A stretch of DNA of 64,000 bases, taken from assembly GCA_031266435.1 (NCBI GenBank), contig JAISAZ010000103.1, positions 16,119 to 80,118 on the forward strand. The letters run 5' to 3'. Shown here in pieces: positions 16,464 through 34,918 of this stretch. This DNA is from Accumulibacter sp. (lineage in GTDB: Bacteria > Pseudomonadota > Gammaproteobacteria > Burkholderiales > Rhodocyclaceae). The notes under the pieces are model-generated. The model saw nothing but the letters and a program-made list of their open reading frames with translations. It was not told the origin of the DNA and searched no databases. How positions within the stretch are numbered: the stretch's first letter is position 1; each line of letters starts with the position of its first letter. The position numbers and the translations under genes were made by a program.

Positions 16464-16820
16464 TCAGCCTGCGCTATAAAACAGGCTACACCCGACGGCC
16501 TCACGCGACAGGCGCTCGATCTGCGCGAGCATTTTTTCTCCTTGCGTTTCCAGGATCAGCGCTCGCGCTTCTTCGCCAAGCCCCACGGCGCGTGCGGCGA
16601 GGTGAAAGTCGAAGAGCGCGGACAAATCGCCGTCCTTGACGGCGAATATACGGAACGCCGCTACGAGATTCTCTTCTCCATCTACCAATGGAGCCGTCGC
16701 GCGCAGGGTTGTCCCCTTCGCGCGGCAGTGCTCTTCGGCGATTTGCAGGAGTTGTTCCGCCGAACAGAAACGCACGGCGGCGCCGTTTTCGATCAGGTAG
16801 TAGAGAGTGCGTCCATCCAT
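16464..16820 (-). CDS. Hypothetical protein (~118 aa)
   Basis: ATG 16820 overlaps the last 28 nt of the large glycosyltransferase; fills the gap to the convergent sulfotransferase; no recognised motif. Confidence 0.4.
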   Translation of the reverse strand: MDGRTLYYLIENGAAVRFCSAEQLLQIAEEHCRAKGTTLRATAPLVDGEENLVAAFRIFAVKDGDLSALFDFHLAARAVGLGEEARALILETQGEKMLAQIERLSREAVGCSLFYSAG

Positions 16821-19800: not shown

Positions 19801-21259
19801 AAACTTTCCAGTCGCAATCTTTTCGCTCGGCCAAGCGCCCCAGTCTTTCGATATTTGCCTTCCAGTAAGCGGGATGGTTTCCTATCGGGAGTACCATCGA
19901 AATGAAGATTTCGGGTTCCTCGCCCATCAAGCCAAGCCGATACGCGCCATCACGCAACAGAGCGAAATTGATTCTGGCTTCCTCCGGGATGCCGGGGTCT
20001 CTTTGCTGTTGCTCGGGATGGATACGGAAACACGAGAGCGTTGCCGGGACGTAGGCAGCGTTCCCCTTGGAGAGCAGGTTACACCATATCGCATGATCGC
20101 GGACAACAAGAATGCGATCGTGCCCTGCAAACGCCATGAAGTGAGGTTTGTTCGACGCGAGTTCGGATTTTCTGAAAAGCGGCGTAGTTGGTTCGCCGAT
20201 AAAATTGTATGCGGATATAAGGAGACCCGCAGCGAGCGCCGTTCCTTCGAAAACGCAGTCATCTGTGGAAAGCGGAAGGCTGTCAACCCGATCGGGAAGC
20301 GCACGGTCGTCGGCGTCGATCAACGCTCTTTTTGAAAACGCGAGCGTGATGTCGGGGTACTTCCGAAAGCCCTCCAAGAGGCGTTCGACGCAATCCGGCG
20401 CGAGAGTGTCGTCGTCGTTCAGGAATTTGATGAATTCGCCGTTCGACGCGGTGAAACAGAGAGCATGATTTTCACATCCGGAGTTATCTACCCTATTTGG
20501 ATTTCTGAGGTAACGGACTCGCGGATCCGCTTCGAATTTTTTGACGATTTCTTCGATTCCCTTATCCGGGCAATCGTCACAGATCACGATCTCGATGTTT
20601 TTCCAGGTTTGCGCGATGGCGCTTTTCAGCGCTTTCTCGAAATATTTCGGCTTGTACGCGGGAATCGTGACGCTGACGAGCGGAACAGCGTCAGCGGCAA
20701 GGCGCCGGTCGGACTTGATAAATTCCAGGATCAGGTCCGATTCGGCGCGGTATTCGAGGTTTCTGAGCGCCTCGTGCGTACTTTCGCCGATCCGGCAACG
20801 CTCGGTAAAGGTGAATCCTGCGATTTCCGCGACGCGCCGCAATTCTTCCTCGTCGTAGACGAATTTATGCCCCCACTCGCGCATAGCGACATTCAACGCC
20901 TCGCAACGCGTTTTGACCCAAGGAAGGCCAAACGCGGCGAAACCTTCATGAAGACGATTGCTCTGGTAAGCGGCGACCGTTCCTTCCAGGCCAGGGGTCG
21001 CAAGGCGGAGGATTCCGCCGGTTTTCAGGACGCGCCGCACTTCGCGCAGGAGGCGCAAACCCTCGCGCCGGTCGAGGTGTTCGATGAAATGCTCGCTGAA
21101 AACGGTGTCGCAACTCGCGTCGGGGAAGGGGAGACCCTTTCGTACGTCGATTTGCAGGTCGACGCCCGGAATCGCGTCGATATTGACGAAACCGGGGAGT
21201 ATCCGGCTCCCGCAGCCCAAGTGTAGCCGGAGCGGCGTGCTGTTTTCCTTGATATTCAT
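16793..21259 (-). CDS. Multidomain flagellin glycosyltransferase: class I methyltransferase + GT2 + TPR + GT2 + GT4-like
   Basis: LHLGCG..DVRKGLPFPDASCDTVFSEHFIEHL; LVSVTIPAYK..IVICDD..KFLNDDD; VSIIVPTR..FDYSAMNN..LLLLNND..SAVTGACLL; C-terminal IGWTG..LDLAVAPL..FNEAKSNL.LLEFG. Confidence 0.88.
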   Translation of the reverse strand: MNIKENSTPLRLHLGCGSRILPGFVNIDAIPGVDLQIDVRKGLPFPDASCDTVFSEHFIEHLDRREGLRLLREVRRVLKTGGILRLATPGLEGTVAAYQSNRLHEGFAAFGLPWVKTRCEALNVAMREWGHKFVYDEEELRRVAEIAGFTFTERCRIGESTHEALRNLEYRAESDLILEFIKSDRRLAADAVPLVSVTIPAYKPKYFEKALKSAIAQTWKNIEIVICDDCPDKGIEEIVKKFEADPRVRYLRNPNRVDNSGCENHALCFTASNGEFIKFLNDDDTLAPDCVERLLEGFRKYPDITLAFSKRALIDADDRALPDRVDSLPLSTDDCVFEGTALAAGLLISAYNFIGEPTTPLFRKSELASNKPHFMAFAGHDRILVVRDHAIWCNLLSKGNAAYVPATLSCFRIHPEQQQRDPGIPEEARINFALLRDGAYRLGLMGEEPEIFISMVLPIGNHPAYWKANIERLGRLAERKDCDWKVYDRLGDYAEKMGNKALAISWYQRAEERAGEPVRENLKLAKLLTESDRFAEAVPLLERYIERFPEAIGVREWIETALTGRATLENRGEEVQAAFLLDYWRWRERRLEDPLFETLRRERAENLWKTPPLFEILLILNPGEEALLADSIDSLARQYYTGWRLGIFAQTPSPEAEFTQSDSPVRWVCCPPEELAEHVNAYIAESPTHWFGFFECGTRFSEDAFLTLGDYIAIRPQWKLIYADDDCVARNGKFHSPRFKPDLNLEFLRSTDYIGGFFIEKYTLASAGGFSTIPGAAPYDLLLRAIDASGEAAVGHIPEILVHLCDSASMGADDEGATEALRRHFKRRKTPVSILSGLTADARIRSRSVVYLHEEKPKVSIIVPTRNRLDLIAPCVESLFKKTTYPNWELVIADNDSDDPKVHAYYDRLRARFPGRVKIVPTPGDFDYSAMNNRAARQAEGEYLLLLNNDTECIDANWLDAMMSHAQRPDVGIVGARLLFPETLKIQHAGVVLGLAPLNTANHIFVLHPHDAPSYMNRTFVDQEYSAVTGACLLVRASIFHQVAGLDPLLKLQHQDVDLCLKVGELGYRVVWTPFATLLHQGSASFKHLSSQDMEQATFAEMAQETENFIKRWKHRLSSDPAWNRHLSLWEMALTLENELVVPWNTDFHDRPRVLFLPVSPPATAEYRGVAPLRALNLQGRLHYADICQLHEGQARRAPTPVELDRLAPDVLVMHTPVNEVSYAALLSYKESNPGVFRIYSLDDLLTCLPEDHPMHSMASGDEFTKRVHLGLGACDRLLVSTEPLAEAFRTMIDDIRVVPNALEWRVWGHLQSKRRQGRKPRIGWTGAQQHAGDLRFLTEVVKATCKDADWIFFGMIPEEIRPYVAEFHDFHHDFPTYPEKLASLNLDLAVAPLEIHPFNEAKSNLHLLEFGILGWPVICSDIFPFRTDNPPVTRLPNDPDKWIAAILERIADPDALAREGDALREWVKKHYLLENRLDAWMDALSTT

Positions 21260-21484: not shown

Positions 21485-22120
21485 TCAGAGTCCGATTTCC
21501 CGCGCGGGGTTTCCGAAAACCTTTTCTCCTGCCTTGACGCGCTTCAAGACGACGCTACCGGCGCCGACGTAAGCGTCGTCCTCGATCACAACGCCCGGCG
21601 CAATGGCGACATTGCCGCCGATAAAAACACGGTGGCCTATCGAAACGCGGCCCATAATATTACAATACGATGAAATCGTACAGTAGTCGCCTACGGTCAC
21701 GTCGTGTCCCAGACCGCATGTAAGAAAACTCGGGAAGTTTCCGACGCTAACGTTTACCGTCATGCCGAATCCGCCGTAAACAACGGCGCCTTCGCCGAGT
21801 GTATTGTGCCGTCCGAGATAGGCGTAAGGGTGGACGACGGATTCAAAAACCGCGCCGCGCGCTTTCAGCGTCGTCGAAATCCTTTCCTTGGCGGCGGGGT
21901 TGGCAATAGCCATGACAAGCGCTTCATTCTTTTTCGGTATGTAATCGTCGATTGTCCCGACGACAGAATAATCGCACGCTTTGCCCCGTAGCGGGTCTTC
22001 GGTGTCGTCGAGGAAGCCCTTTATGTTCCAGCGTTGCCCTTGGGTGGCGTGAATGTCGAGCATCAGGTTCAAGACTTCACGCCCGAAGCCGCCCGCACCG
22101 AGTATGTATATATCCTTCAT
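21485..22120 (-). CDS. NeuD/PglD-like sugar acetyltransferase (left-handed beta-helix)
   Basis: IYILGAGGFGREV N-terminal domain, hexapeptide repeats, GAGSVV..VFGNPAR. Confidence 0.88.
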   Translation of the reverse strand: MKDIYILGAGGFGREVLNLMLDIHATQGQRWNIKGFLDDTEDPLRGKACDYSVVGTIDDYIPKKNEALVMAIANPAAKERISTTLKARGAVFESVVHPYAYLGRHNTLGEGAVVYGGFGMTVNVSVGNFPSFLTCGLGHDVTVGDYCTISSYCNIMGRVSIGHRVFIGGNVAIAPGVVIEDDAYVGAGSVVLKRVKAGEKVFGNPAREIGL

Positions 22121-22139
22121 TGGGTTTATTCATTTCCAA

Positions 22140-22997
22140 TTATCTTACACTGACGATTCTACCTTCCCTTCGATAGGTCGTATCTTTTAAGTTCGTGTCG
22201 AACTTCCCGTCAGTCAAGCAAAAAATATCCGTATCAAGCAGCCGGGAAATTGTTTCATAAGAATCCTTTTCATCGAAGCAGCAAAGTGCGCTGTCACCGA
22301 CGTTTTCGCTACGTAATTGCCTTTTTTTCACCATCGCATCGTATACGACGAACTTGGGGTTCAAGTTGCAATTCGCGTAGGTCGAGTAGAGGAAGGCTTT
22401 TCGGTTCTTGCTTTCCCGGCCATCTTCGTCTATCACGGTTCCAACGAATTTTCTGTCGTACCTGTACGGAACACCTAGGACAGCCTCGGCATAATGCGTG
22501 TAGGTGAAGCACGCGCGCATATCCGCGCCAAAGAATAGAAATTTGACATTTTTCCCACAATTGCGCAAGCGATCGTAGTTTGAATCTTGACCGATGGAAT
22601 ATTCGCTCAAATCGTCCACAAGATTCAGTTTGTCTCCGAGAACATAGACAGAGAGCAGGGGATCGTGAGTGCGGGCGCCGCGACCTGTTTTTCGGACGTA
22701 TTCATTGAGCGCACCCATCGGGGTTTTGCTGTTTTGCACGTCATAAGCTTCGTCATTGCAAAAGCTGAAAGTGAATGTGGGGAAAACGAGCGTGGCAACG
22801 CGTAGTTCTTCGATGATTCGCAGCAACGAAGCGAGCAAGTCTCCGCGCCTGATTCCTTTTGCGGGTAGCCCGAAAGTCATGTCCGTGTGGATGTAGAGAA
22901 CATCGCATTCGCCTGCCTGTATTCTCTTGAGTTTTTCGAGCATCTTCGACGAACTCACGCCACCCCGATTGCTGTGGAACAAGACTTCATTTTGCAT
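22140..22997 (-). CDS. AAC(3)/YokD-family N-acyltransferase (start at ATG 22997)
   Basis: DVLYIHTDM, TLVFPTFTFSF, MGALNEYVRK, RTHDPLLSV, FTYTHYAE..LGVPYRY motifs. Confidence 0.85.
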   Translation of the reverse strand: MQNEVLFHSNRGGVSSSKMLEKLKRIQAGECDVLYIHTDMTFGLPAKGIRRGDLLASLLRIIEELRVATLVFPTFTFSFCNDEAYDVQNSKTPMGALNEYVRKTGRGARTHDPLLSVYVLGDKLNLVDDLSEYSIGQDSNYDRLRNCGKNVKFLFFGADMRACFTYTHYAEAVLGVPYRYDRKFVGTVIDEDGRESKNRKAFLYSTYANCNLNPKFVVYDAMVKKRQLRSENVGDSALCCFDEKDSYETISRLLDTDIFCLTDGKFDTNLKDTTYRREGRIVSVR

Positions 22998-23017
22998 GGT
23001 GTTATCCCTTTGTGAAA

Positions 23018-23764
23018 TCAGAGTTTCGGAAAGCGCTCTCCGCCGTCTACGTTGATGATCTGCCCTGTGAGGTAGCACGCGTCCTCCGAAAGCAAAAAGC
23101 GTGCGACCCTAGCGACATCTTCGACGGCTCCTGGTAGTAACAGCGTGGGCGGTGCCCATTCTGCGTCGTCGGACGTATCGGCGAAAAGCGTTTGTATAAT
23201 CCGCGTTTTGAACGACCCTGGCGCGATGGCGTTTACACGCACGCTGGGCGCGAGTTCGTTGGCGAGTGCGACCGTCAGCGCGTTGATAGCGCCCTTGCTC
23301 GCGCAATAGTGTGCCTGATGTTTTTTTCCGACAGTGGCCACGATGCTGCTTGTGAGGACGATCGCTTCAAGGCGACCGGCGTTGACCCTGCGCTTCAGGA
23401 GCGTACTGATGATTTCCGTCGCCGAAAAGTAATTGATATTCATTACTTGCAGACCGACGCTGTACTTCGTTTTGGATATCGGCAGTACTTCGGTTATTCC
23501 AGTGAAATGCGCGAAGGCTTCTACGCCTACGCCTTCTTCCCTCAGGAATGCCCCAAGTGTTGCCGCGAGGCCATCGGCTTTTTCCAGGTCGTAGGGGAAA
23601 AGGAGTACCTGGTTGCCGTGCTCTGCACAGGCATCGCCGACCGCAGCGAGTCGTGCTTCGTCGCGTCCATTCAGGATGAGGTTACGATCAAGGCTCAGCA
23701 GCTTTGCGGTAGCCTCACCCATGCCGGAGGAGGCGCCGGTAATGAATGTGAAAGATTGATTCAA
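23018..23764 (-). CDS. Short-chain dehydrogenase/reductase (FabG-like)
   Basis: ITGASSGMG, YCASKG, VNAIAPG, YLTGQIINVDGG. Confidence 0.9.
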   Translation of the reverse strand: MNQSFTFITGASSGMGEATAKLLSLDRNLILNGRDEARLAAVGDACAEHGNQVLLFPYDLEKADGLAATLGAFLREEGVGVEAFAHFTGITEVLPISKTKYSVGLQVMNINYFSATEIISTLLKRRVNAGRLEAIVLTSSIVATVGKKHQAHYCASKGAINALTVALANELAPSVRVNAIAPGSFKTRIIQTLFADTSDDAEWAPPTLLLPGAVEDVARVARFLLSEDACYLTGQIINVDGGERFPKL

Positions 23765-23803
23765 GATTGAATCCTCAATGAATGAAGTTGTAGGCTAGCT
23801 TTT

Positions 23804-25052
23804 TTACGTCCGCAACTTCATGCGCTCTGGCGGAATGGCATAGCAAATCACCTCATCCCCCCAATTCGTGTAAGCGCGCAAAACAAATTTGTAATCGGGA
23901 ACGATGTGTTTTATGAATAATGGTAGATCGTAAAGGTCGTACGGGTGATGATAGACAGAAATGGCAAGGACGGGGCGGTCTCTGCTGATTAATTCGGATG
24001 CGCCGTGTAATGCGTGTGCTTCGAAGCCTTGGATGTCCATTTTTATAAGCGTTACCGGATTTTCGCCGCTCAGGCGGTTGTCCAAGGGAATACATGGTAT
24101 TTTGCCCCCCCCCCCCCCTAACATCGCTACGCTCTTCAAGGGTAACGAAGGAAGAAGACCCCATATCCTCTGGATTAAGATATACGGTCCCATCCTCTGA
24201 ACCTACCGCGCTGTGCAAAACAGTAACCTTAGCCTGGATGTTGTTGGGCAAAGTTTCTAATGTCTCACGCAATCCCTTGATGTTTCGCTCGTCGGGTTCG
24301 ATGGCGATATATTTTTTGAAAGAACGAGCGGAATCCATCTTTAGGTATTGCAAAAGCGTATCTCCAGTGAATGCGCCGCAATCGACGAAAACATCGTTCT
24401 CTATGCTCGTGTATACATCATCAAAATATTGAAGCTCAGGATCGCTGGCTGGTATGAAAGCGTCCGAATTTAGAAGATAGCGCTTCAATACGGACGTAAA
24501 GACTGCCTTGGAATGGAAATCGCAGAAAAGATCATAGGCTTGCTTGGTTTTGACCCTGTTCCTTTGAGATGCAAATATGTCGGTTTTGCGATAGAAATCA
24601 TAATTTTTTGTTTTTTTGGAACCATATGGAAGGAAGTCGCCCAATTGCCTAAAATTTATGATTATGTTCTTTGCGTCATGAGGAAAAAATTGTGCAATTT
24701 CAGCATACGATTTTTCAGCGCGGTCATTGAGTTCGCAAATGACAAAGAGCGCTCGCGGCGCCTTGAGCAAAGCTTCGCGTAGGGGGAGGGTATCCTGCTC
24801 GTCACGTGGGCTGTCCGAAAGAGAGCAATGCGTTGAAATTTTCGGTTCATGGCTTTCATCGCTCACCGTTATTGGAATTTCAGGGAGGGTCTCCTTCATG
24901 AGAGAAAATATAACGTTTGAGTGGTAATTGGCCGGGTAAAGAATCACGCCAGACTTACTTTTCCACTCGTCGCCATATTTTTGTTTGGTGAAACGCGATG
25001 AGTCTAACATAGTGTTGTCATAAATTTTGAAAAGTTGCTCTATATTGCACAT
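23804..25052 (-). pseudogene. FkbM-family methyltransferase, frameshifted at a G14 tract (probable phase-variable OFF state)
   Basis: Frame 1 has FVDCGAFTGDT..IAIEPDERN..AVG; after the tract the FkbM C-terminus (LIKMDIQGFE..ALHGA..RPVLAISVYH) is in another frame. G13 or G16 would give one ~415-aa ORF. Confidence 0.88.
24105..24118 (-). repeat. Homopolymer tract C14 (G14 on coding strand)
   Basis: Direct count TTTG-C14-TAAC; the longest homopolymer I noticed in the window. Confidence 0.9.
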
Positions 25053-25056
25053 GACT

Positions 25057-26598
25057 TTACCTTCCGGGTGTATGCATTCTGTCGTGAAGGGGCAGGGTTT
25101 CCTTGAGCGTAAAGCGGTCGATTTTTCCGTTGACGTTACGCGGCATCTCGCTTAGGTGGATGTACTCTGTTGGAAGCATGTAACGGGGGAGGGTTTCTCC
25201 AAGGCGAAGCCTGAGCGATTTTTCATCGAGAGTTACGCGCGCTTCATAAAAGAGGACGATTTTTTTATCCCTGTAAAAAACGCAGCAATTCCTTACTTCG
25301 GCAACCGCGCTTATAGCGGCATGTTCAATTTCCGCAAGCTCAATTCGGTATCCTTGGTGCTTTATCAGAGTATCCTTGCGCCCTTTGAATACGATTTCGC
25401 CGTAGTCATTCACGTATACGATATCGCCGGTCCTGTAGATTATCTCGGGATAGCATCCGTTCAAAGGGTTCTGAACGAAGACCTCGGCTGTTTTTTCGGG
25501 AGCGTTGTAGTAACCAAGGGCGAGTGAAGACCCCAAAACGCACAGTTCTCCCTCTTCACCGGTTTTTGCCAGTTCGTTCGATCCGTTCAGAATGAGAATG
25601 TCGACGTTCTTTCTCGGAAATCCTATCGGGATCGGCTCGTCATTTGCAAGCTCACGTTCTATTTTGTAATAGGTGCAGTCGACGGTTATTTCCGTCGGAC
25701 CGTACAGGTTGACAAAAATGGCGGTGGGGAAGGCGGCGCGCCAGTAATTAAATTGCCGCGTTGGAAAGACTTCACCCGCGAACCAGATCGTTTTCAAAGG
25801 GGGGGGCACTGCTTCGTCGAATAGCTTCATATTTGCGATATTGACCATGATGGTCGGCACCCAAAAAATGAAACTGACACTGTGCGTTTTCAGGAGTCCG
25901 AGTATTTTTACCGGAAAGGCTGAAAGAGACGGAGGGATCAGGAGCAATGAGACACCGTGTATGAAAAGAAGGCATATTTCGTATACATAGTGATCGAAGA
26001 CGACGGGAGAAAGGACTCCAAGAACCTCTTCATGCGAGAGCGAGAAGGTGTCTATCGCCCAGCGTGTATAGTCCAGAAAACCGCGCTGATGCAAAACAAC
26101 GCCCTTCGGTGTCCCCGTCGATCCCGATGTATTGATGATGCAGAACATTTTGGAATCCGCCGTACAAGAGACGATGTTCGAGGATTCTTCCATCGCATCT
26201 GGTTGTGCGAGGATTTCTTCCATGCAAAGAATGATTTGCTCTTTCAAACGAATTTTAAATATATGATCATATAATTTCCGCGTCGTCAATATCAGCGGTG
26301 GTGCAACGTTTTCCAGAATCCTGCGTATTCGTTCGTGTGGAATGCTTACATCCAGATTCATGAAAGCATTTCCGCTGTAAATGATACCCAAGTCGGCGAC
26401 GACAGTTTCTGCGGATTTGGACAGATAAACGGCGATGGGTCTATTGGAAACTTCTGTATTGGACAAAGCGTGAGAAATGGCGAGAGCTTTTTTTCTGAGT
26501 TCTCGGAAAGTAACGTGCCGCTCACCGTCGATAATCGCCGTCTTCTCTGGAAATGTGGCGACTGTTTCTTCAAAGTGTTCAATAATATTCGTTTTCAT
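25057..26598 (-). CDS. Stand-alone adenylation (AMP-binding) enzyme, DltA/NRPS A-domain-like
   Basis: IINTSGSTGTPKGV, NLYGPTE, YRTGD, GRKDTLIKHQGYRIELAEIE, NGKIDR. Confidence 0.92.
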   Translation of the reverse strand: MKTNIIEHFEETVATFPEKTAIIDGERHVTFRELRKKALAISHALSNTEVSNRPIAVYLSKSAETVVADLGIIYSGNAFMNLDVSIPHERIRRILENVAPPLILTTRKLYDHIFKIRLKEQIILCMEEILAQPDAMEESSNIVSCTADSKMFCIINTSGSTGTPKGVVLHQRGFLDYTRWAIDTFSLSHEEVLGVLSPVVFDHYVYEICLLFIHGVSLLLIPPSLSAFPVKILGLLKTHSVSFIFWVPTIMVNIANMKLFDEAVPPPLKTIWFAGEVFPTRQFNYWRAAFPTAIFVNLYGPTEITVDCTYYKIERELANDEPIPIGFPRKNVDILILNGSNELAKTGEEGELCVLGSSLALGYYNAPEKTAEVFVQNPLNGCYPEIIYRTGDIVYVNDYGEIVFKGRKDTLIKHQGYRIELAEIEHAAISAVAEVRNCCVFYRDKKIVLFYEARVTLDEKSLRLRLGETLPRYMLPTEYIHLSEMPRNVNGKIDRFTLKETLPLHDRMHTPGR

Positions 26599-26676
26599 GG
26601 TGTGCGAATATTTAAAGTCGCGTGTTGTGGGAGCAGGCCAATTGCTTTTGGGAATGTGTTACTCCAGTATTGAAGT

Positions 26677-27543
26677 TTATGCCATACGGATTTCATGCTT
26701 TATAAATTTATATACCATATGGTAGATGAACACGCCGTCAAGTGTCTGATTGAGTAGCCGAGAGTATTTCATCAGGCGCTTGTTCGTCGCATCACGCCAG
26801 CCGTAAAACCGGGATGGCGGGATAGCGAGCCGCCGGATATGGCGATGTAGGAAATAACCGAATTTTACGGAGAGGAACTCGTCCCGATAACCCTTTCGCG
26901 TTATGTCGTAGATGTCGGAGTATTGACCGTTCTGTATGCTGAAGTAGAGGAGTGCGCCAATCATTTTGCCTCTTCTAATGACGAGAATCTGGCGCGCCTC
27001 GATGTTTTTTATGATTTCCGAAAATTCTGGGATGTTGTCTCCAAATAAATCGAATTCCTCGAAAAGCATCTCGGAAATTTCTTCGGCATCACTGACGCAC
27101 GCATAGCCGACCTGCTCTTCTTGTTGGCTTTTCAGCAACTGCTGTACCAAGGGCGGATTGACGTCAGTACGAATTCTTGCCAAGCGCTTGCAGAGCACGA
27201 AGCCGGACTCATCAAAAACCGTAGCGATTTCACCTGTAGAGGGTTCTTTTCCGGTTATCGAAGCGCGTAGCGCGAACGTATCGTCGTAAACCGACAAAAA
27301 ATTCTTTAGGTCGTCACGTAATGAATCCATGCTTGCCGAGACGTAAAGGAAGTCATAGTAGGAATCGTGGTAAGGAATCAATAAAAAAAGCGAAGCTTCA
27401 AGAGAATGGAATAGGCAGTGCCTACTTTCAAGGAGTTGGCGGAGTTTATCCGCGCTCAAAAAAATATTGCTCAGCGGACGGCGATATTTTTCTTTCAACG
27501 CGTCGGCGCGGCCAATGAAATCAAGAATCGACGCTGGTCGCAT
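26677..27543 (-). CDS. Hypothetical protein, possible GNAT-fold acyltransferase
   Basis: C-terminal half VGYACVSDAEEISEML...ILVIRR...TRKGYR resembles GNAT motifs; lies between the adenylation enzyme and an SDR. Confidence 0.5.
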   Translation of the reverse strand: MRPASILDFIGRADALKEKYRRPLSNIFLSADKLRQLLESRHCLFHSLEASLFLLIPYHDSYYDFLYVSASMDSLRDDLKNFLSVYDDTFALRASITGKEPSTGEIATVFDESGFVLCKRLARIRTDVNPPLVQQLLKSQQEEQVGYACVSDAEEISEMLFEEFDLFGDNIPEFSEIIKNIEARQILVIRRGKMIGALLYFSIQNGQYSDIYDITRKGYRDEFLSVKFGYFLHRHIRRLAIPPSRFYGWRDATNKRLMKYSRLLNQTLDGVFIYHMVYKFIKHEIRMA

Positions 27544-27585
27544 ATCCCTCCTTCTCGGCGGTTATTGACATTGAGCTTTGTTGGG

Positions 27586-28362
27586 TTAGCACACGGCACC
27601 AGCATTGATGGAAAGCGTTGCACCTGTAATGGATTTTGCTGCGTTGGAAAGCAGATAGATGGCCAGTTTTGCGACGTCGTTCGGGTCGATAAGGCCGAGC
27701 GGTTGGTAGCCTGTTGATTTGATGTGCTCGTTGAAGTCGCCGGTGATCTCGTCGATTTCGGCCAGCATTTCAGTTTTGACGAAGGCGGGGCGTACTGCGT
27801 TGATCGTCATGTTCTTCGCCGCGAGCTCTGTGCCAAGGCAACGAACGGCGGCCTCCATGGCGGCTTTTGAAGCCGCGTACGCGGTAAGGTATTTCTCATG
27901 CGTCACGCTTGCCAGAGATGAGATGCAGACAACGCGCATACTTTGCGCCTTTGTTTTTTTTCGGACGAGGCAACGTATGAATTCTATAAACGGATAAAAA
28001 TTTATTTGCATGAATTCATGCGTCGTTGCGTAAGTGTTGTCGCGTAGCCTGATTTTCCCCATCTTTCCTGCGGAAAATATAAGCCCGTCGATGTGATTAT
28101 ATTCTGTTTGCATTGTTGTCACTACCATTTCGATATCTGAAATATCAGCGATGTCGAAAGGGAGGATGGTGTGCTTACCCCGTGGCATCAACTGAAGAGT
28201 TTCTTCAAGCGCCTGTTTATGTCTCGCTACGAGAATCACATTGGCGCCTTGCGCGCCAAGTTCAAGGCAGACGCTTCGCCCTATCCCTGAGGATGCGCCG
28301 ACGACGAGATAGTTTTTGCCAGAATATTCGCCGTTCATTTTCAAGACGTGATGAAGTTTCAT
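27586..28362 (-). CDS. Short-chain dehydrogenase/reductase (FabG-like)
   Basis: LVVGASSGIG, YAASKAA, INAVRPAFVKT; ATGA overlap with the upstream KAS III. Confidence 0.9.
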   Translation of the reverse strand: MKLHHVLKMNGEYSGKNYLVVGASSGIGRSVCLELGAQGANVILVARHKQALEETLQLMPRGKHTILPFDIADISDIEMVVTTMQTEYNHIDGLIFSAGKMGKIRLRDNTYATTHEFMQINFYPFIEFIRCLVRKKTKAQSMRVVCISSLASVTHEKYLTAYAASKAAMEAAVRCLGTELAAKNMTINAVRPAFVKTEMLAEIDEITGDFNEHIKSTGYQPLGLIDPNDVAKLAIYLLSNAAKSITGATLSINAGAVC

Positions 28363-29456
28363 TCATTCACTGGCTTTACGAAGCCCTCTTCGAAACGACC
28401 GTCGTAAGTGAAGATCGGATCGATGACCGACGAGTCGATTTCAAAAGCGGCGATTCCCCAGGATAGTCCAATGCCGAAACCGCAGGTCAAAAGCGATAAT
28501 TTGTTTTTTTCCGCGTTAGCGAAGGCGTCGGCGATCGTCAGAGAGACAGATGCGCCCCCCATGTTGCCGTAACGGTCCAGCGAGACGGGAACTTTATCCA
28601 TGTCGATTTTGAGGCGTTTGGCGATGGCGCTGACGATCTGCAAATTTGCCTGATGTAGCACCAAGGCGTCGTAGTCGACCAAGGTCTTTTTCTGCGTCGA
28701 GACGAATGCGCGAATACTATCCACGACGGTTGTGGTTGCAAATAGAGTAATTTCCAGTCCATCCATGTAGGCACCAAGTCCTGAATATTCCGCGCCATTC
28801 GGCAACAATACCTTGGGCTGATATCGCCATGCGTTTCGGGCACCGCCGAAAGGGGCAAGCATATGCTTGTAACCTGACCCGTCTGTATGCAGGGAAACGC
28901 TCAGAGATGTGCATTCACTCTTTTCCAGTAGCAAGGCCGTAGATCCTTCCCCGAAAAGGAAAGAGTCTTGCCTCAACAACTCCTCTCTGGAAGCATATTG
29001 CGGCCATATGGTTTCGCCGGAAAACATCAGAACACGATTAACGTGCGCCTGCTGCAAAAACGCGGCGCAGACGGAAAGCCCGTAGGGGAAGCTCGAGCAC
29101 CCCAAAGTAATATCGAAGGCTAGGGTACCCGACGGAAGTCCAAGACGATACTGCATCAGGCATGCGTTCCCCGTCGCGGGGTTGTAATCCGGTAATTGCG
29201 ACATGAAGACGATCGCGTCGATGCTTTCCGCATCCCATCCGGTTTTTTCCATCGCTCGGAGCGCGGCAGCGTAAGCGAAGTCGGTACTGGTTTGCTCGGT
29301 GATCGAGATGTGACGTTGCGAGATGCCGGTCTGCTTTTGAAAATTTCGTACGTAGGCCGGGTCGGGGGTTTTGTCAGCGCCGATTTTCTGCACGTACGAG
29401 GGCACGGCACAAGTAAGCGCCGCGATCCTCACGTTGTCGAATTCTAGATAGGCCAT
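28359..29456 (-). CDS. 3-oxoacyl-ACP synthase III (FabH-like) #1
   Basis: Catalytic triad motifs DITLGCSSF, HQAN, YGNMGGAS; GFGIGLSWG. Confidence 0.9.
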   Translation of the reverse strand: MAYLEFDNVRIAALTCAVPSYVQKIGADKTPDPAYVRNFQKQTGISQRHISITEQTSTDFAYAAALRAMEKTGWDAESIDAIVFMSQLPDYNPATGNACLMQYRLGLPSGTLAFDITLGCSSFPYGLSVCAAFLQQAHVNRVLMFSGETIWPQYASREELLRQDSFLFGEGSTALLLEKSECTSLSVSLHTDGSGYKHMLAPFGGARNAWRYQPKVLLPNGAEYSGLGAYMDGLEITLFATTTVVDSIRAFVSTQKKTLVDYDALVLHQANLQIVSAIAKRLKIDMDKVPVSLDRYGNMGGASVSLTIADAFANAEKNKLSLLTCGFGIGLSWGIAAFEIDSSVIDPIFTYDGRFEEGFVKPVNE

Positions 29457-29681
29457 CTAGGCCGACTCCATTGTATTCAGGATGTCCCGCACGGTTTTGA
29501 ACGCGCGTATCTGCGCGCCAGTTACCTTTTTATTGAATTTATCGGTCATCAGCACCACGAGCGAAAGCGCGGCGAGCGAATCCCATTCGTTGATGGAGCC
29601 GAGGCTGGCTTCGGGCGTCAGAGTGCCTTCTTCCAAGTCCATGATTTCTTCCAGCGCGGCCAGTTTTTCTTGTAGATTCAT
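29457..29681 (-). CDS. Acyl carrier protein #1
   Basis: 74 aa, acidic, WDSL phosphopantetheine attachment motif. Confidence 0.9.
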   Translation of the reverse strand: MNLQEKLAALEEIMDLEEGTLTPEASLGSINEWDSLAALSLVVLMTDKFNKKVTGAQIRAFKTVRDILNTMESA

Positions 29682-29715
29682 TTTTTTCCTTTCGTGAGAA
29701 TAGGTTCCAAGAGCC

Positions 29716-30816
29716 TTAACTCGCGGTATACGCGATGGTTCCTTCTCCCGGATGTTCTAGGAACTTGCAAAAATCCAGCTTGCCCAAGCGGTCGACGCCC
29801 GCCGCCAAGGATAAACCGGCGCCGAAGGCGGAGTAGCAGACGAGAGGGCGTTCCGTGAGCAGACGTTCGCCCAAGTTGAAAGCGATATTCACCGGAATTG
29901 TCACTGTCGACGAATTACCGAAGTTCTCGACGATATTGTTGAAGAGTATCGACCGGGGAACATCAATTAAATCGGCCAGCTTTTCGAGCATGAAGCGGTT
30001 GGGCTGGTGTGTCAGGTGGTAGCGGATATCACCTTTGGCAACCTTGGCGTAGCGGCAAGCCTCTTCGACCAGCGGCGGAACTTCTTCCATGACAAACTGG
30101 AATACGGCGGTCCCGTCCATGTGCATATTGTTCAGGCTACGGTAGTTGCCCATTTCATCCTGAAAGACCTTTGCGGTCTCTTCGGAGTAAGGCATGCGGC
30201 GCCCGCCCGCCGGGACGATGAGTGCTTCACGACGGCTGCCGTCGGTGTGGAATACGAAAGAAATTTTGTCATCAATGTCGGCGCTTTTGCTCACGACGGT
30301 GACGGCGGCTGCGTCACCGCACAAAGGGTAGGTGTTGCGGTCGAGTTTGTTGGCGTAGCATGCGCCAGCGTCGGTCGTCACGAGGACAACTTCTTCGATG
30401 TCCGACGCGGCGATCAGACTACATGCCGTGTAGAGACCGGAAATGAAGCCGATGCAGTTTTCATAGAGGTCGGTGCAGAAGCAATCGCGCGGAAGACCGA
30501 GCTGGCCGTGGATGACCTTGCTGTTCCCGGGGGTGAGGTGGTCGGCCATCTGGGCGACGACGACGAGCGCAGAGACGGCATCTTTTTCGAGATAGCCTTC
30601 GTGAAAAAGATAATTCAGCGTGTAGGAGGCCAGATCGCAGGGTGTCGTTTGCGGGTCGGCGATTCTGTGCTCCTTGAAACCCATGACTTTGGCGAGCCGA
30701 CGCGAAGATTTTTCCGGGAACGGAAAATCTTTCAGTTCATCCTCGAAGCGGCAAACCCGCGCTGGAACCGTGGCGCAAATGCCTCGAATTTTTACCCCGT
30801 GAATCGTCGCTCGCAT
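29716..30816 (-). CDS. 3-oxoacyl-ACP synthase III (FabH-like) #2
   Basis: ENCIGF (Cys), HQPN (His), FGNSS (Asn), FGAGLS. Confidence 0.9.
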   Translation of the reverse strand: MRATIHGVKIRGICATVPARVCRFEDELKDFPFPEKSSRRLAKVMGFKEHRIADPQTTPCDLASYTLNYLFHEGYLEKDAVSALVVVAQMADHLTPGNSKVIHGQLGLPRDCFCTDLYENCIGFISGLYTACSLIAASDIEEVVLVTTDAGACYANKLDRNTYPLCGDAAAVTVVSKSADIDDKISFVFHTDGSRREALIVPAGGRRMPYSEETAKVFQDEMGNYRSLNNMHMDGTAVFQFVMEEVPPLVEEACRYAKVAKGDIRYHLTHQPNRFMLEKLADLIDVPRSILFNNIVENFGNSSTVTIPVNIAFNLGERLLTERPLVCYSAFGAGLSLAAGVDRLGKLDFCKFLEHPGEGTIAYTAS

Positions 30817-30831
30817 CGTGTAACCGTTTTA

Positions 30832-31089
30832 TTAAGCCATGCCTTCTGTTATCGGTACTTTTTTGCTTTTCTTTATGAGCGCACAGATGTTTTTTGCCGA
30901 CGAAAAATTTTCGGGAACGATGTCGAGCGCCGAAATGAGTATCGAAAAAGTTTCCTCAAGCTCACCTACGAGAGTGACGACATCGAAACTGTCCAAATAG
31001 CCCATTTCGACGAAATCGACACCTTCTTCAAAGTCGTAAACGGGTTGAATATCCTTGAGAATTTCAAAAACTTTTTCTTCCATGACCAC
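30832..31089 (-). CDS. Acyl/aminoacyl carrier protein #2 (DltC-like)
   Basis: GYLDSFDVVTLV phosphopantetheine motif and PENF tail. Confidence 0.88.
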   Translation of the reverse strand: MVMEEKVFEILKDIQPVYDFEEGVDFVEMGYLDSFDVVTLVGELEETFSILISALDIVPENFSSAKNICALIKKSKKVPITEGMA

Positions 31090-31094
31090 TCCTG

Positions 31095-32267
31095 TTATGA
31101 TAAACAGTTTTTTACGATGTCAGCGATGCGCTCGATGTTTGCGTCTTCAAGCCCCGGATACAGTGGTAGACAGAGGACGCGCCGGGAGACGCTTTCCGCA
31201 ACGGGACAGGGTTGCGTTTCCTTGAGATAGGGGAGCGTGTTCAGCGCCGGATAAAAGTAGCGCCTCGAAAAGATGTTCTTCGCGTTCAGACGTTCCACTA
31301 CGCACAGTAGCGTTTTCTCGTCGTCGAAAATCACCGGGTAATACGCGTGATTGTATTTCAGGTCGTTTCTGAGAGCGGGGCGCCTCAGGCCGAGCGGCGG
31401 GAGGTATGCGTCGTACGCGTCGCGAACTTTTGCGCGCGCGGCGATCCTGCTTTCAACGCCGTCCAGCAGGGCGAGGCCCATCGCCGCGTGAAGCTCAGAG
31501 AGTTTCGCGTTGATGCCGAGGCGATAGTGTACGTCCCCATGGTGCCCGAAGGCGCGCAGGAGGGTCAGCGCTTCCATGGCCTCCGGCGAGTGCGCGACCA
31601 CGCCGCCGCCTTCGACCGTATGAAATATTTTCGTCGCGTGAAAACTGCACGTGGCATAATCGCCGTAATTGAGTACGCTTTGGCCTTTGTAGGCGCTACC
31701 GAAACACTGTGCACCGTCGTAAATAAGCGTCAGGTGTGCGTCTTTCGCCATTGTGCCGAAGGCATCCACGTCGCACGCGTTGCCGTAGATGTGCACCGGC
31801 AGAACACCAGCGACGTCGGGTGTGATCTTTTCCGAGACCGCGTGAGGGTACAGGCAGAGGGTTTCTTCGTCAATGTCCGCGAAGACCGGCGTACAGCCTT
31901 CCCACAAGAGCGCGGAAACGGTTGCTACGTAGGAAAAAGGCGTCGTGATGACTTTCTTTCCCGTCAGCCCCGACGCGCGCAAGGCGATTTGCAGGGCCAG
32001 TGTACCGTTGGCGCAAAGCGCGAGGTGCGGAACGGAGAGGCGCGTTTTGAGTGCCGTTTCGAGCCGGTCGACGAAAGGGCCATGATTGGTAAGATGCCCG
32101 GAAGAGAATATCTGCGCCAGATAAGCGGCGTATTCGCTCGCATCGGGGACGGCGGAGCGCGTGACCTGGATGGGGGCGATCGCGTCGATTCCGTCAGGCG
32201 GAAGCGGATTTTCGCACTCTTTTGCGGCGGCGGCGTCCGAGAGCGTGTGTGGAATTTTATGCGCCAT
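31095..32267 (-). CDS. DegT/DnrJ/EryC1/StrS sugar aminotransferase, VioA-like (start uncertain)
   Basis: IQVTR..P, LTNHGP, TPFSYVAT, SFHATKIFHTVEGG (PLP lysine), GINAKLSE.HAAMGL, RRYFYP, VLCLPLY. Confidence 0.9.
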   Translation of the reverse strand: MAHKIPHTLSDAAAAKECENPLPPDGIDAIAPIQVTRSAVPDASEYAAYLAQIFSSGHLTNHGPFVDRLETALKTRLSVPHLALCANGTLALQIALRASGLTGKKVITTPFSYVATVSALLWEGCTPVFADIDEETLCLYPHAVSEKITPDVAGVLPVHIYGNACDVDAFGTMAKDAHLTLIYDGAQCFGSAYKGQSVLNYGDYATCSFHATKIFHTVEGGGVVAHSPEAMEALTLLRAFGHHGDVHYRLGINAKLSELHAAMGLALLDGVESRIAARAKVRDAYDAYLPPLGLRRPALRNDLKYNHAYYPVIFDDEKTLLCVVERLNAKNIFSRRYFYPALNTLPYLKETQPCPVAESVSRRVLCLPLYPGLEDANIERIADIVKNCLS

Positions 32268-32569: not shown

Positions 32570-33943
32570 TTACGAATCGCACACCGTTGGTATAAAAGCG
32601 TACTCCGGCCATTTTTCTCGCAAGACGGCTTTGCTTTCCTCGAACTCTGGCGGAACGCTGTATCCAGATTTTGTATTATGGTAACACGGGGCGTCAATGA
32701 CGACGCTTTGAAGTCCGGCGCGTTTTGCGGCGAGGCAGATATCCGTGCCGTAGAGGTGCCAGCCCAGCGACGGTTCAAGTTGGAGCGGTGAGGATTTCGG
32801 GATGATCAGCGCGAGTTCGTCCAGACTGTCCGCAGACGCGGGGAGTGCGCCGGATTCGTCGAGCAAGACGCCTCGGTCGACGACCCTGCCGAGGCGGCGG
32901 ACGCCGTCGGGCGTAGCGGAAACGCCATAAACTCCCATGACGCCGATCGGCGCGTTCGTAGCCTTCGCTGTCGCGCTGAGGCGGGCGTATTGCTCAAAAA
33001 CCCGCGCGACCCAACCGGCAGGAAGGTAAACGTCCTGATGCGCGAGGACGACGATCTCGTTCCGCGCTTGCGCGATCGCCTCGTTCAGCCCTTCCGCCGC
33101 GCTGCTTGCGCCTTCGATCGTCAGTATTTCGTGTTTGTCGCTCTGCAGGCAGGGAGAGGCCAAGAGGTTGGCGCGTAGCGTTTCCGGGTCGTTCGTACAG
33201 ACGCCGACGGAGACCGGGGGCGTATCTTCGGTTTGTGTGGGCCAGTTTTCGATCGGACGCGCGTCCATGAAGTAGTCGAGGGTGCGCGTTCGCTGCTCGA
33301 AAACGGCGGGGGCGAGCCGCATTCTCTGAATCGTCGGCGCCAGGGCGGAGAGCCAGCCATTTGGCGCGGTGATTTCTCTACGGTCGGCGATACGCGGCAG
33401 ATATCCGGCGTCGAGGAAGAGTTTGACGATGTCGGAAACGGCGAAAAGGTTTTCCGTATGCGCGTGGGATGTGGGGGGAATGTTGTGAGTGTTGTAGCTC
33501 CGGCCTCGCAGGTCGCCGTGAAGAAGGCTGTCGAAAAAGCGCCAGTGCTGCGCGTTGGAAAATGAGGCGATCAGGTGACCGCCCCAGCGCAACAAGGGAC
33601 GCAACGCGTTCAGCGCGGCGAGGGGGTCGGGCGAGTGCGCGAAGAAATCGTCGGCGATGATGCAGTCGATTGATTGAGGCTCGATTGCGGGAGGCGCGTT
33701 TTCGATGTCCAGAATGAAATTCCGGTCGAAACGCTTCGCGGCCTCAGGTGGGATTTTTGTCCTTGCGACGCCGAAAATTTTTCGGGAAGGCACGAGGTGT
33801 TTGAGGATTTCGGCTATCCGTCCGTTGCGGGCGTCGAGGTCGAGGATGTTTCGCGCGTCGCCGGGTACAAGCTGAACGACGCGCAAATCGGCTTCATGGT
33901 AGAACTCTTCGGCGAAGGGTCTGGAATTTTCGATCGTCGTCAT
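32570..33943 (-). CDS. Methyltransferase-like domain fused to a GT2-like glycosyltransferase
   Basis: N-terminal ILDL...DPLAAL..L.PLLRWGGHLIASFSNAQHW; C-terminal SAAEGLN..VVLAHQDVYLP..DSLDELAL..GWHLYGTDICL. Confidence 0.75.
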   Translation of the reverse strand: MTTIENSRPFAEEFYHEADLRVVQLVPGDARNILDLDARNGRIAEILKHLVPSRKIFGVARTKIPPEAAKRFDRNFILDIENAPPAIEPQSIDCIIADDFFAHSPDPLAALNALRPLLRWGGHLIASFSNAQHWRFFDSLLHGDLRGRSYNTHNIPPTSHAHTENLFAVSDIVKLFLDAGYLPRIADRREITAPNGWLSALAPTIQRMRLAPAVFEQRTRTLDYFMDARPIENWPTQTEDTPPVSVGVCTNDPETLRANLLASPCLQSDKHEILTIEGASSAAEGLNEAIAQARNEIVVLAHQDVYLPAGWVARVFEQYARLSATAKATNAPIGVMGVYGVSATPDGVRRLGRVVDRGVLLDESGALPASADSLDELALIIPKSSPLQLEPSLGWHLYGTDICLAAKRAGLQSVVIDAPCYHNTKSGYSVPPEFEESKAVLREKWPEYAFIPTVCDS

Positions 33944-34039
33944 GATCGGCCGTCAAACGCATCGTATTCAATTGTCGGAATCGAAAGGCCGTTGCAACAT
34001 TTGCGTCGCTTTTGCAATTTCGGATTCGTAGAGGTAACG

Positions 34040-34918
34040 TTAGAGCGGGGCGGGAACGCCGAGCGCGCGGGCGAGGATTTCCGGTGCGTTGCGCTTTGAG
34101 AAAATTTCGAGGCCCTGCCGCGCGAGTTTTGCGCGTGCGTCGTTGTCCGCGACGAGTTCGGCGCAGGCATCAACGAGCGCGTCGTAGGGGACGGCGCGGA
34201 CCGCTTGGCGTATATCGGGTTCGATCGCCGTCGCGGCGCCGCATTCAGCGACGACGGGTTTTTCGTTGGCGAGGAGGTAGGAGACGCGAACGATTTCGAA
34301 AACCTGCGCGTCGTAATAGTGCATGTTGAGGACGACTTTGGCGCGTGCGATCATGCGGTCGCGCTCTTCGCGGTAGACGCCGACGAGGAATTCGATGCGG
34401 AGACCTTTTTTGATCAGTCCTTCGAGGATGACCCGGCGGCGTTCGTTGATCGCGCCGTAGAAAAGGACGTCGATGTCTTGCGCGACGTCGGCGGGGATGC
34501 GCGTGAGTTGCGGGACGTAGCCGATCGGGACGAATTTCGCGCCTTCGACGCCGATGTTTTTCATGCGTCGGATGTTTTCTTCGCTGTAATCCCAAACGAC
34601 GCATTTTTTGAGCAGGTCGAGGTAGGCGGGGGTGATCCACGTGGAATTTTCGTCGGGATTTTCACTGATCTGTTCGGAGTTGTAGAGGATCGTGTCGGCG
34701 GGGATCGCGCGCATCGTTTGCGCGTCGAGGAGGTGGGCACCGAGGACGATGTTCGTGCAGTCGGGCTCGATTTTGTTCATGTTGAACTGGAAGGGGAGGC
34801 GTAGCGCATCGAGCGCAACGATCAGCGTTTCGGCGAGTTCGGCCATCGCGGCGCTGTGCGCGTAGTTTTCCGGCTGGAGCAGCGTGAGGTTGGTGGGGCG
34901 CGTGGTGGGTTCGGGCAT
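34040..34918 (-). CDS. Putative glycosyltransferase (GT-B fold)
   Basis: VWDYS..N, DIDVLFYGAINERR, AKVVLNMHYY..FEIVRVSYLLAN motifs seen in glycan-locus proteins. Confidence 0.6.
   Translation of the reverse strand: MPEPTTRPTNLTLLQPENYAHSAAMAELAETLIVALDALRLPFQFNMNKIEPDCTNIVLGAHLLDAQTMRAIPADTILYNSEQISENPDENSTWITPAYLDLLKKCVVWDYSEENIRRMKNIGVEGAKFVPIGYVPQLTRIPADVAQDIDVLFYGAINERRRVILEGLIKKGLRIEFLVGVYREERDRMIARAKVVLNMHYYDAQVFEIVRVSYLLANEKPVVAECGAATAIEPDIRQAVRAVPYDALVDACAELVADNDARAKLARQGLEIFSKRNAPEILARALGVPAPL

Follow-up and report, generated by a model that had tools for sequence, protein, structure and literature searches.

A twelve-gene sugar N-acylation cassette with a candidate poly-G switch in the flagellar island of a termite-gut Accumulibacter sp.

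Genes and catalytic residues of the cassette

A stretch of 64,000 nucleotides (the window, 64 kb) of contig JAISAZ010000103.1, from an Accumulibacter sp. assembly (GCA_031266435.1) of a termite-gut metagenome, was analysed around a cassette of 12 co-directional minus-strand genes at positions 21485-32267. The spacers between the genes measure 0-90 nt, and the cassette forms one operon of soluble enzymes; promoter and terminator scans gave counts equal to the shuffled expectation and did not inform the operon boundaries. Gene content and order mark the cassette as an enlarged form of a seven-gene module that is widespread and, as far as the literature search showed, uncharacterised; one gene of the cassette carries a poly-G tract that can be read as a candidate switch. 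A previous sequence-only reading had described one co-directional run of these enzymes; all 12 genes were recovered where it had placed them, with Pfam or NCBIfam support for all but a 288-aa protein. Its wider claim, a discrete carrier-protein assembly line that builds an acyl group and feeds it to an amino sugar, is a logic that the gene families support.

The first gene (31095-32267) encodes a DegT/DesI-like sugar aminotransferase of 390 aa, dependent on pyridoxal phosphate (PLP), with a match to PF01041 (DegT_DnrJ_EryC1) at E = 9.5e-83. It starts at the ATG at 32267, as in the gene call in locus L001, its best matches were DesI in NCBIfam and in the PDB (2PO3), with scores under every equivalog cut-off, and the PLP lysine is present in the motif SFHATK. 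Two acyl carrier proteins (ACPs) then alternate with two 3-ketoacyl-ACP synthases III (KAS III). ACP1 (30832-31089) is a DltC-like carrier of the PP-binding family, with DltC as its best NCBIfam match and its serine S34 in LDS34F, and KAS1 (29716-30816) is a KAS III of the conserved-core type with ACP_syn_III and C-terminal domains and the residues C121/H270/N301, 39-45% identical to the lone KAS III of distant core loci. ACP2 (29457-29681), an AcpP-like acyl carrier matched by PP-binding and the NCBIfam ACP models, has its serine S35 in WDS35L, and KAS2 (28359-29456), the second KAS III, supported by Pfam and PDB matches, is specific to the extended cassette and carries C120/H268/N298. The Cys-His-Asn triads that had been reported as intact in both KAS III enzymes were thus read straight from the sequence. 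Two short-chain dehydrogenases/reductases (SDRs) of the adh_short/ketoreductase (KR) families, both with intact GxSxGxG and YxxxK motifs, complete the chain-building set: SDR1 (27586-28362; adh_short_C2, E = 9.9e-44; GASSGIG, Y162xxxK), a FabG-like ketoreductase paired with KAS2 whose called start, compared with the gene call in L001, probably lies 8 codons in, and SDR2 (23018-23764; adh_short_C2, E = 2.5e-34; Y153xxxK), the ketoreductase of the conserved core.

A stand-alone amino-acid adenylation enzyme of 513 aa, similar to DltA and to the adenylation domains (A-domains) of non-ribosomal peptide synthetases, is encoded at 25057-26598. It scored 323.6 against a cut-off of 317.4 for TIGR01733 ('amino acid adenylation domain') and carries the core motifs A3, A5, A7, A8 and A10 (TSGSTGTPKG, YGPTE, YRTGD, GRKDTLIK and NGKIDR), and its PDB matches were TycA, DltA and LgrA. 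A motif-anchored mapping gave the specificity code DHYTWALVDK, with a family consensus of D[IH][FY]T[WF]A[LF][LV]DK, and the residues that bind the alpha-amino and carboxyl groups, Asp235 and Lys517, were found in 198 of 198 aligned family members, as mapped by motif and not by structural alignment. To our knowledge DHYTWALVDK matches no established specificity code; the aromatic-lined pocket suggests a small amino acid as substrate. A glycine specificity, considered on the basis of the LgrA score in the PDB search, was rejected, that score being the sum over two A-domains (174 + 193 bits), whereas the single-domain enzymes TycA and DltA score higher.

Three candidate N-acyltransferases are encoded in the cassette. 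The 288-aa protein (26677-27543) had no direct Pfam match, but an exhaustive profile search yielded 550 representatives, and GNAT Pfam models matched 49 of 134 aligned profile relatives. An AlphaFold2 model built from the 134-sequence alignment reached a pLDDT of 94, and its best Foldseek matches were the tandem GNATs VipF and MAB_4324, the mycothiol synthase MshD (probability 1.0 for these three), WecD (TDP-fucosamine acetyltransferase) and GLYAT (glycine N-acyltransferase). The protein is accordingly modelled as a divergent tandem-GNAT N-acyltransferase, and the earlier label 'GNAT-like' is borne out by profile relatives and predicted fold, not by a direct Pfam match. A reading of this protein as an orphan, prompted by a word-index search that gave 4 proteins and a genome scan that gave none, was dropped after the 550 profile relatives were obtained, and a first AlphaFold2 model from a 4-sequence alignment (pLDDT 55) was poor and was set aside.

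The second (22140-22997) is an N-acyltransferase of the AAC(3) fold (Antibiotic_NAT, PF02522, E = 9.6e-22) that fails the NCBIfam AAC_3 equivalog (31.7 bits against a cut-off of 270) and has no sequence match in the PDB. Judged by its sequence, it belongs to the fold family PF02522 only and is not an aminoglycoside-resistance enzyme, so that its AAC(3)-like relatives ought not to be counted as genes for aminoglycoside resistance either. The last gene (21485-22120) encodes a hexapeptide sugar N-acyltransferase of the NeuD/PglB/VioB family (TIGR03570, 167 against a cut-off of 160.8; PglD_N and Hexapep domains).

A seven-gene core in many phyla and the origin of the cassette

Species-representative genomes were scanned with an alignment of the AAC(3)-like protein, giving 80 loci that were annotated by tblastn and with hidden Markov models built from the matches, and co-occurrence was counted in the 69 loci of at least 12 kb, all of them found through that protein. 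Of the 69 loci, 65 have an A-domain, 65 a KAS1-type enzyme, 64 ACP1, 68 ACP2 and 58 the tandem GNAT. The canonical order A-domain, tandem GNAT, ACP1, KAS III, ACP2, SDR, AAC(3)-like was shared by 25 loci from Acidobacteriota, Bacteroidota, Actinomycetota, Myxococcota, Verrucomicrobiota and others, while a permutation in Firmicutes consists of the blocks [ACP2-SDR-AAC3] and [A-ACP1-KAS1-tGNAT] (tGNAT, tandem GNAT). In 60 of 63 genome loci the gene directly downstream of ACP1 is of the KAS1 type, and in 66 of 69 an SDR gene borders that of the AAC(3)-like protein. By this high co-occurrence and the canonical order, two carriers and at least two N-acyltransferases are conserved, the number that a pair of amide bonds would call for. 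Stand-alone homologues of the adenylation enzyme, 50-56% identical to it, number in the thousands in Bacteroidales, Bacillota and others, and the AAC(3)-like protein has about 700 homologues, of which the closest named ones come from Desulfovibrio, Mailhella and Desulfovibrionaceae (57-67% identity). A literature search for a characterised sugar-acylation module with A-domain and KAS III returned none.

In the window this core is enlarged by KAS2 and SDR1, placed behind ACP2, and by the genes for the FkbM and NeuD-like proteins. Of the 69 loci, 11 have the block KAS1-ACP2-KAS2-SDR1; they come from Desulfovibrio, Bilophila, Mailhella, a Treponemataceae metagenome-assembled genome (MAG), Succinatimonas, Gastranaerophilales and two Bacteroidales (L088, L090). 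The same cassette in near-identical order was found in the metagenome contigs L002, L004, L006, L011 and L014, some of which have extra esterase, class-I methyltransferase, formyltransferase or B12-radical-SAM genes. In L014 (12119-16565) and in L017 (12752-15430), from Desulfovibrionaceae and Bilophila, genes for B12-binding radical-SAM proteins and a formyltransferase stand beside the NeuD-like gene, which hints at C-methylated or N-formylated variants of the product. In a relative from Acutalibacter the module sits with RmlA- and RmlB-like genes.

The cassette differs in composition from the backbone that carries it. The GC content at third codon positions (GC3) is 0.45-0.68 in the cassette genes, with the minimum from the FkbM gene through SDR1, against 0.80-0.83 in the housekeeping genes of the host backbone (37831-63046), which comprises rsmH, the dcw cluster, lpxC, dciA, secA and argJ. 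The order ftsZ-lpxC-dciA-secA-argJ is one that we take to be the beta/gamma-proteobacterial arrangement, and the MraY protein of the window clusters at 90% identity or more with a protein from an NCBI MAG labelled Candidatus Accumulibacter sp. An affinity to Desulfovibrionaceae was considered for the host and rejected, since the housekeeping GC3, this synteny and MraY disagree with it; it holds for the cassette. Given the low GC3 relative to the backbone, the beta/gamma-proteobacterial host and the nearest named relatives in Desulfovibrionaceae, we conclude that the cassette was acquired horizontally, from a pool shared with gut Desulfovibrionaceae. The module is spread over Acidobacteriota, Bacteroidota, Bacillota, Actinomycetota, Myxococcota, Verrucomicrobiota, Desulfovibrionaceae and others, and the version in the window illustrates its extension and its movement between gut bacteria into a flagellin glycosylation island.

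The poly-G tract in the FkbM gene

The gene of the FkbM-family methyltransferase (23804-25052) is out of frame as assembled because of a 14-nt poly-G tract in its coding strand (poly-C on the plus strand) at 24105-24118. The assembled open reading frame (ORF) spans 23853-25052 and encodes 399 aa, with an out-of-frame tail of 80 residues and no Pfam match. With 10, 13 or 16 G in the tract, the ORF continues to about 23804 (414-416 codons), its end resembles that of the homologues, and it gives a 51-bit match to PF05050 (positions 1-162 of 173), a domain that is lost with 14 G. No other homopolymer in the window exceeds 8 nt, and a run of 10 G is expected 0.03 times per window according to dinucleotide-preserving shuffles.

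Tracts of this kind were also found in related cassettes. One of 9 G splits a second FkbM gene in L004 and one of 13 G splits a methyltransferase gene in L006, while in Helicobacter muridarum (L091) a tract of 11 G (2561-2571) splits an SDR gene, one of 16 C (5541-5556) splits an FkbM gene and one of 14 C (6608-6621) lies at the 5' end of a second adenylation gene, making three candidate switches in one 6-kb cassette. MAGs of Selenomonadaceae and Gastranaerophilales (L061, L071 and L076) have 5-9 G/C runs of 8-13 nt per locus of 12-18 kb; these runs fall within SDR, KAS, AAC(3)-like and adenylation genes as well as in the spaces separating them, and the GC content is 31-35% in L061 and L071 and 53% in L076. 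In Campylobacter jejuni, homopolymeric tracts in flagellin-glycosylation genes, including that of the N-acetyltransferase Cj1296/7, switch glycan structures (PMC3068675, PMC13130089).

On the grounds of the frame effect, the rarity of the tract, the like tracts in related cassettes and the C. jejuni precedent, the tract is read as a candidate slipped-strand switch on O-methylation whose assembled state would be 'off'. The O-methylation step that the sequence-only reading had placed in the pathway is supported as to its family once the frame is restored, and the frameshift would leave it switched off in the assembled sequence. The alternatives to a switch, namely that sequencing or assembly miscounted the homopolymer or that the gene is decaying and the tract inactivates it for good, seem unlikely to us. 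In their favour, Illumina-type assemblies do miscount long homopolymers, and the assembled contigs, at a depth of about 11, showed one tract length and no length variants. An error or a decaying gene accords poorly, however, with the 14 G that the window shares with a Logan contig of the same run, and with a frame downstream of the tract that is intact for 100 codons and conserved relative to the homologues. A 14-mer is also far beyond chance, the methyltransferase genes of L004, L006 and H. muridarum L091 are each interrupted by an independent tract, and such a tract is intrinsically hypermutable whatever its true length (PMC3068675). Phase variation by homopolymer tracts in the tailoring of glycans, known above all from Campylobacter and Helicobacter, would then extend to related cassettes of commensals of the insect and mammal gut.

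Predicted product, its target and the competing explanations

The cassette is a variant of the sugar N-acylation systems known from viosamine islands and from the wfp genes, and not a new category; what the analysis adds is the conserved seven-gene core, the horizontal acquisition into a flagellar island and the candidate poly-G switch. In Pseudomonas syringae pv. tabaci, vioA, vioS, vioR, acp, vioB, vioM and vioT make N-(3-hydroxybutanoyl)-2-O-methyl-viosamine on flagellin, as established with mutants and mass spectrometry (PMC3927599), so that the Pseudomonas precedent invoked earlier, an island with aminotransferase, KAS III, KR, ACP, VioB and methyltransferase, is real. Like this island and orfA-N of P. 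aeruginosa PAK, the window has a putative DegT-type 4-aminotransferase, KAS III, a FabG-like reductase, ACP, a NeuD/VioB enzyme, a methyltransferase and a very large soluble transferase, and in both cases a hydroxyacyl group would be built on an ACP and put on the 4-amine of a sugar, there for flagellin and here, as predicted, likewise. The KAS III (Cys-His-Asn), the KR (Ser-Tyr-Lys) and the ACP serine are each present twice in the window, and the NeuD/PglB/VioB enzyme, the flagellin linkage and the soluble transferase are present too. Unlike the viosamine island, the window has two KAS III, two reductases, two carriers, an adenylation enzyme, a tandem GNAT and an AAC(3)-fold transferase, and its methyltransferase is of the FkbM type with a poly-G tract; this comparison is one of families, not of sequence identity.

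For the proposal that the chain is extended twice and reduced twice, a published counterpart exists in Flavobacterium psychrophilum, where the genes wfpC-wfpG (KAS, ACP, KAS, KR and PglD-like) are predicted to make the 3,5-dihydroxyhexanoyl group that is amide-linked to a 4-amino-6-deoxy sugar of the O-polysaccharide (PMC6519341). Its KAS-ACP-KAS-KR genes are named in the same order as KAS1-ACP2-KAS2-SDR1, making this the closest precedent, although the wfp genes serve an O-antigen on a lipid carrier and lack an adenylation enzyme, a second carrier, a tandem GNAT, an AAC(3)-like enzyme and a methyltransferase switch. The flagellin loci of Campylobacter and Helicobacter resemble the cassette in their AAC(3)-like enzyme (Cj1296/7; L091), adenylation enzyme, SDRs, FkbM and NeuD-like proteins and poly-G/C switches (PMC3068675, PMC13130089). 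The identity to the Helicobacter proteins is only 33-37%, however, and those loci modify nonulosonic acids transferred by Maf, whereas the window has no Maf, NeuB or PseI genes; the Helicobacter stretches examined gave one ACP2-like ORF and no match of the KAS1, ACP1 or tandem-GNAT type. The Campylobacter resemblance put forward in the sequence-only reading therefore stands for the families and the tracts, and does not extend to a special Campylobacter-like cassette, given this identity, the nearest named relatives in Desulfovibrionaceae and a core found in many phyla. As to acpP, fabH2 and an amino-acid-activating gene, which the sequence-only reading also placed in the C. jejuni flagellin locus, a literature search on the annotation of acpP2, fabH2 and Cj1307 returned nothing.

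Related carrier-protein chemistry is also known from other pathways. As in the DltA/DltC pair, a stand-alone adenylation enzyme of about 510 aa is combined with a small dedicated carrier, and both names rank high among the NCBIfam and PDB matches; unlike that pair, the proteins of the window score under the DltA and DltC cut-offs, DltB and DltD are lacking, and the carrier lies within an operon of KAS III, reductase and sugar-acyltransferase genes. In the biosynthesis of the 4-amino-2-hydroxybutyryl (AHBA) group of butirosin (BtrI/J/K/O/V/H/G) and of the tetronate on perosamine in Vibrio cholerae O1 (RfbK-O), an acyl group derived from an amino or hydroxy acid is likewise assembled on a free-standing ACP before a sugar amine receives it. 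These two systems differ from the window in using ATP-grasp, PLP decarboxylase and LuxC/E-like families and in having no KAS III extension.

From the observed families, residues, synteny, genomic context and frame effects of the tract we infer the substrates, step order, chain topology, sugar and flagellin target of a two-arm pathway, to which we give about an even chance: an elaborate N-acyl group would be made on a nucleotide-activated 4-amino-6-deoxyhexose and put on flagellin by soluble glycosyltransferases. The DegT enzyme would aminate a 4-keto-6-deoxy sugar nucleotide made elsewhere in the genome, and the adenylation enzyme would load a small amino acid onto the DltC-like ACP1. In the other arm, KAS1 would start a short chain on ACP2 from acetyl-CoA and malonyl-ACP2, KAS2 would extend it once more, and the two SDRs would reduce both keto groups, so that ACP2 would carry a 3-hydroxybutyryl thioester or, after both rounds, a 3,5-dihydroxyhexanoyl one. 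The AAC(3)-fold, tandem-GNAT and NeuD/VioB-like enzymes would then form the amides, joining the amino acid to the 4-amine of the sugar and the hydroxyacyl group to the amine of the amino acid, so that an N-(hydroxyacyl)-aminoacyl sugar results. FkbM would O-methylate this product only in cells with the poly-G tract in frame, making the methylation phase-variable, and the neighbouring soluble glycosyltransferases would place the modified sugar on flagellin in the cytoplasm.

Each chemical element of this product, which the sequence-only reading had expected to be a probably new glycan structure, has precedents. The sugar Qui4N (4-amino-4,6-dideoxyglucose) is known with N-[(R)-3-hydroxybutyryl]-L-alanyl or N-acetylglycyl (PMC3210612), and N-(3-hydroxybutyryl)-alanyl, N-acetylglycyl and 3,5-dihydroxyhexanoyl groups have long been known on 4-amino sugars. 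In the literature searched no assignment of genes to amino-acid-containing N-substituents was found, and the seven-gene module is a concrete candidate for this chemistry.

Several observations count against the two-arm pathway with flagellin as its target. AAC(3)-fold and GNAT enzymes normally use acyl-CoA and not acyl-ACP. The window has no RmlA/B, PseB or NeuB genes for a sugar-nucleotide precursor, and DegT, under every equivalog cut-off, does not fix the sugar. Related loci have an esterase or an MBL-type gene that the cassette lacks, the organism is known from a termite-gut metagenome alone, and the flagellin gene lies 16 kb from the cassette, with a mobile- or defence-like insert in between. 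The core, moreover, is also found in a polysaccharide locus of non-flagellated Bacteroidales with Bac_transf and GT1/GT4 genes. Finally, ACP1 is tied to KAS1, and not to the A-domain, in nearly all gene orders (60 of 63), which fits better a chain primed by the amino acid itself. In that alternative, which we consider possible but clearly the less probable chemistry, aminoacyl-ACP1 would be the primer of KAS1 and the amino acid would end up inside the carbon chain with no amide joint. The tandem GNAT might cap the amine of aminoacyl-ACP1, KAS1 would condense it with malonyl-ACP2 and SDR2 would give a gamma-amino-beta-hydroxyacyl-ACP2; KAS2 and SDR1 would lengthen the chain by a further hydroxylated C2 unit, after which the AAC(3)-like enzyme would pass the finished chain to the sugar amine, and the NeuD-like enzyme would acylate another position. 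The DltC-like ACP1 keeps its place directly upstream of KAS1 in every order variant, even where the A-domain has moved away, and the single KAS III and two carriers of the core fit a primer carrier plus an extender/product carrier. The adjacency of SDR and AAC(3)-like genes likewise fits a last reduction followed by transfer, and the two blocks seen in Firmicutes point the same way. Yet no bacterial glycan with such an acyl group is known to us or was found in the literature read, KAS III enzymes normally take acyl-CoA primers, and two of the three N-acyltransferases would be left without an essential role; the KAS-ACP-KAS-KR set of F. psychrophilum also builds its chain without an adenylation enzyme (PMC6519341). 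Speculatively, and with no greater probability, the core as a whole could be a pathway in which a KAS III primed by an aminoacyl-carrier-protein makes gamma-amino-beta-hydroxy (statine-like) acyl chains, here 6-amino-3,5-dihydroxy, on surface sugars in many phyla, with poly-G on/off tailoring in host-associated bacteria. If true, thousands of genomes would encode a KAS III activity and a class of glycan substituent that are both new.

Flagellin is the probable target of the cassette product in this window. On the minus strand at 325-5288, Pfam and NCBIfam identified fliK, a FliT-like ORF with a weak match under the cut-off, fliD and the gene for a flagellin of 265 aa (4491-5288). These genes are followed on the plus strand (5750-10989) by genes for a tetratricopeptide-repeat (TPR) protein of 935 aa and a TPR-GT41 protein of 810 aa (8557-10989; PF13844, E = 7e-80, and TPRs), of FlmG-like architecture; in the flagellin glycosyltransferase FlmG, a TPR domain that binds flagellin is joined to a glycosyltransferase (GT) domain (PMC7591256). 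Genes for GT41, FkbM, DegT and fatty-acid-synthesis-like proteins are common in flagellin glycosylation islands of enterobacteria (PMC4875605). Downstream of the cassette (16793-21259, minus strand), a soluble methyltransferase-GT2-TPR-GT2 protein of 1488 aa without transmembrane (TM) segments is a candidate for an enzyme that assembles or transfers the glycan, and a homologue with 80% identity occupies the equivalent position in L002. Upstream and co-directional (32570-34918, minus strand) lie the genes for a methyltransferase + GT2_5 protein (457 aa) and for a 292-aa protein with a weak GT1-like match, as assigned with Pfam; both proteins are soluble. The island enzymes have no TM segments and no TM-rich proteins were seen, and among the ORFs of window positions 5-37 kb there was no initiating phosphoglycosyl transferase, flippase, ABC exporter or polymerase; soluble enzymes without lipid-carrier machinery fit cytoplasmic protein glycosylation. 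The Bilophila MAG L017 has the same cassette 7 kb from a flagellin gene, and the Eubacterium MAG L051 (1023-17436) has flagellin, a Maf (PF01973) glycosyltransferase and a polysaccharide deacetylase followed by a duplicated acylation module, which suggests that the module can also serve flagellin glycans of the nonulosonic-acid type.

The same chemistry directed at another target, such as lipopolysaccharide, capsule or another glycoprotein (pilin, S-layer), is in our judgement quite improbable. It draws support from the Bacteroidales polysaccharide locus, from the distance of the flagellin gene and from the fact that most of the 80 genome loci have no flagellin gene within 10 kb. Against it, the export and polymerisation genes named above are lacking between flagellin and the dcw cluster and the enzymes have no TM segments, FlmG-like TPR-GT41 proteins adjoin fliC, and the extended type occurs in mostly flagellated lineages (Desulfovibrionaceae, Bilophila, Treponemataceae, Gastranaerophilales and Succinatimonas), although the two Bacteroidales loci L088 and L090 carry the block too. 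Because the same core is present in non-flagellated Bacteroidales, the module alone does not imply flagellin: the module makes the donor sugar and the genomic context decides the acceptor. The assignment to flagellin made in the sequence-only reading fits the fliK-fliD-fliC, TPR-GT41 and soluble-enzyme context. A literature search gave nothing on flagellin glycosylation in Desulfovibrio.

Some further features were noted between the flagellar genes and the dcw cluster. The intergenic kilobase between the TPR-GT41 gene and tcmP (10990-12057) is dense in REP/MITE-like elements, with units of 60-65 nt in 3-4 direct copies and many inverted pairs. It is followed at 12057-14565 by a TcmP (TIGR04474) and DUF5131 gene pair and an HTH_31 regulator, with a GC3 of about 0.57; this segment resembles an insertion of mobile or defence type within the glycosylation island. 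At 14606-16457, a gene for adenosine 5'-phosphosulfate (APS) kinase is divergent from a 357-aa ORF without family match and with two hydrophobic stretches; the kinase may supply 3'-phosphoadenosine 5'-phosphosulfate (PAPS) for sulfation of the glycan. A gene for a GGDEF diguanylate cyclase (35158-36939) lies between the island and the dcw cluster, and a GGDEF gene flanks the cassette in L011 too.

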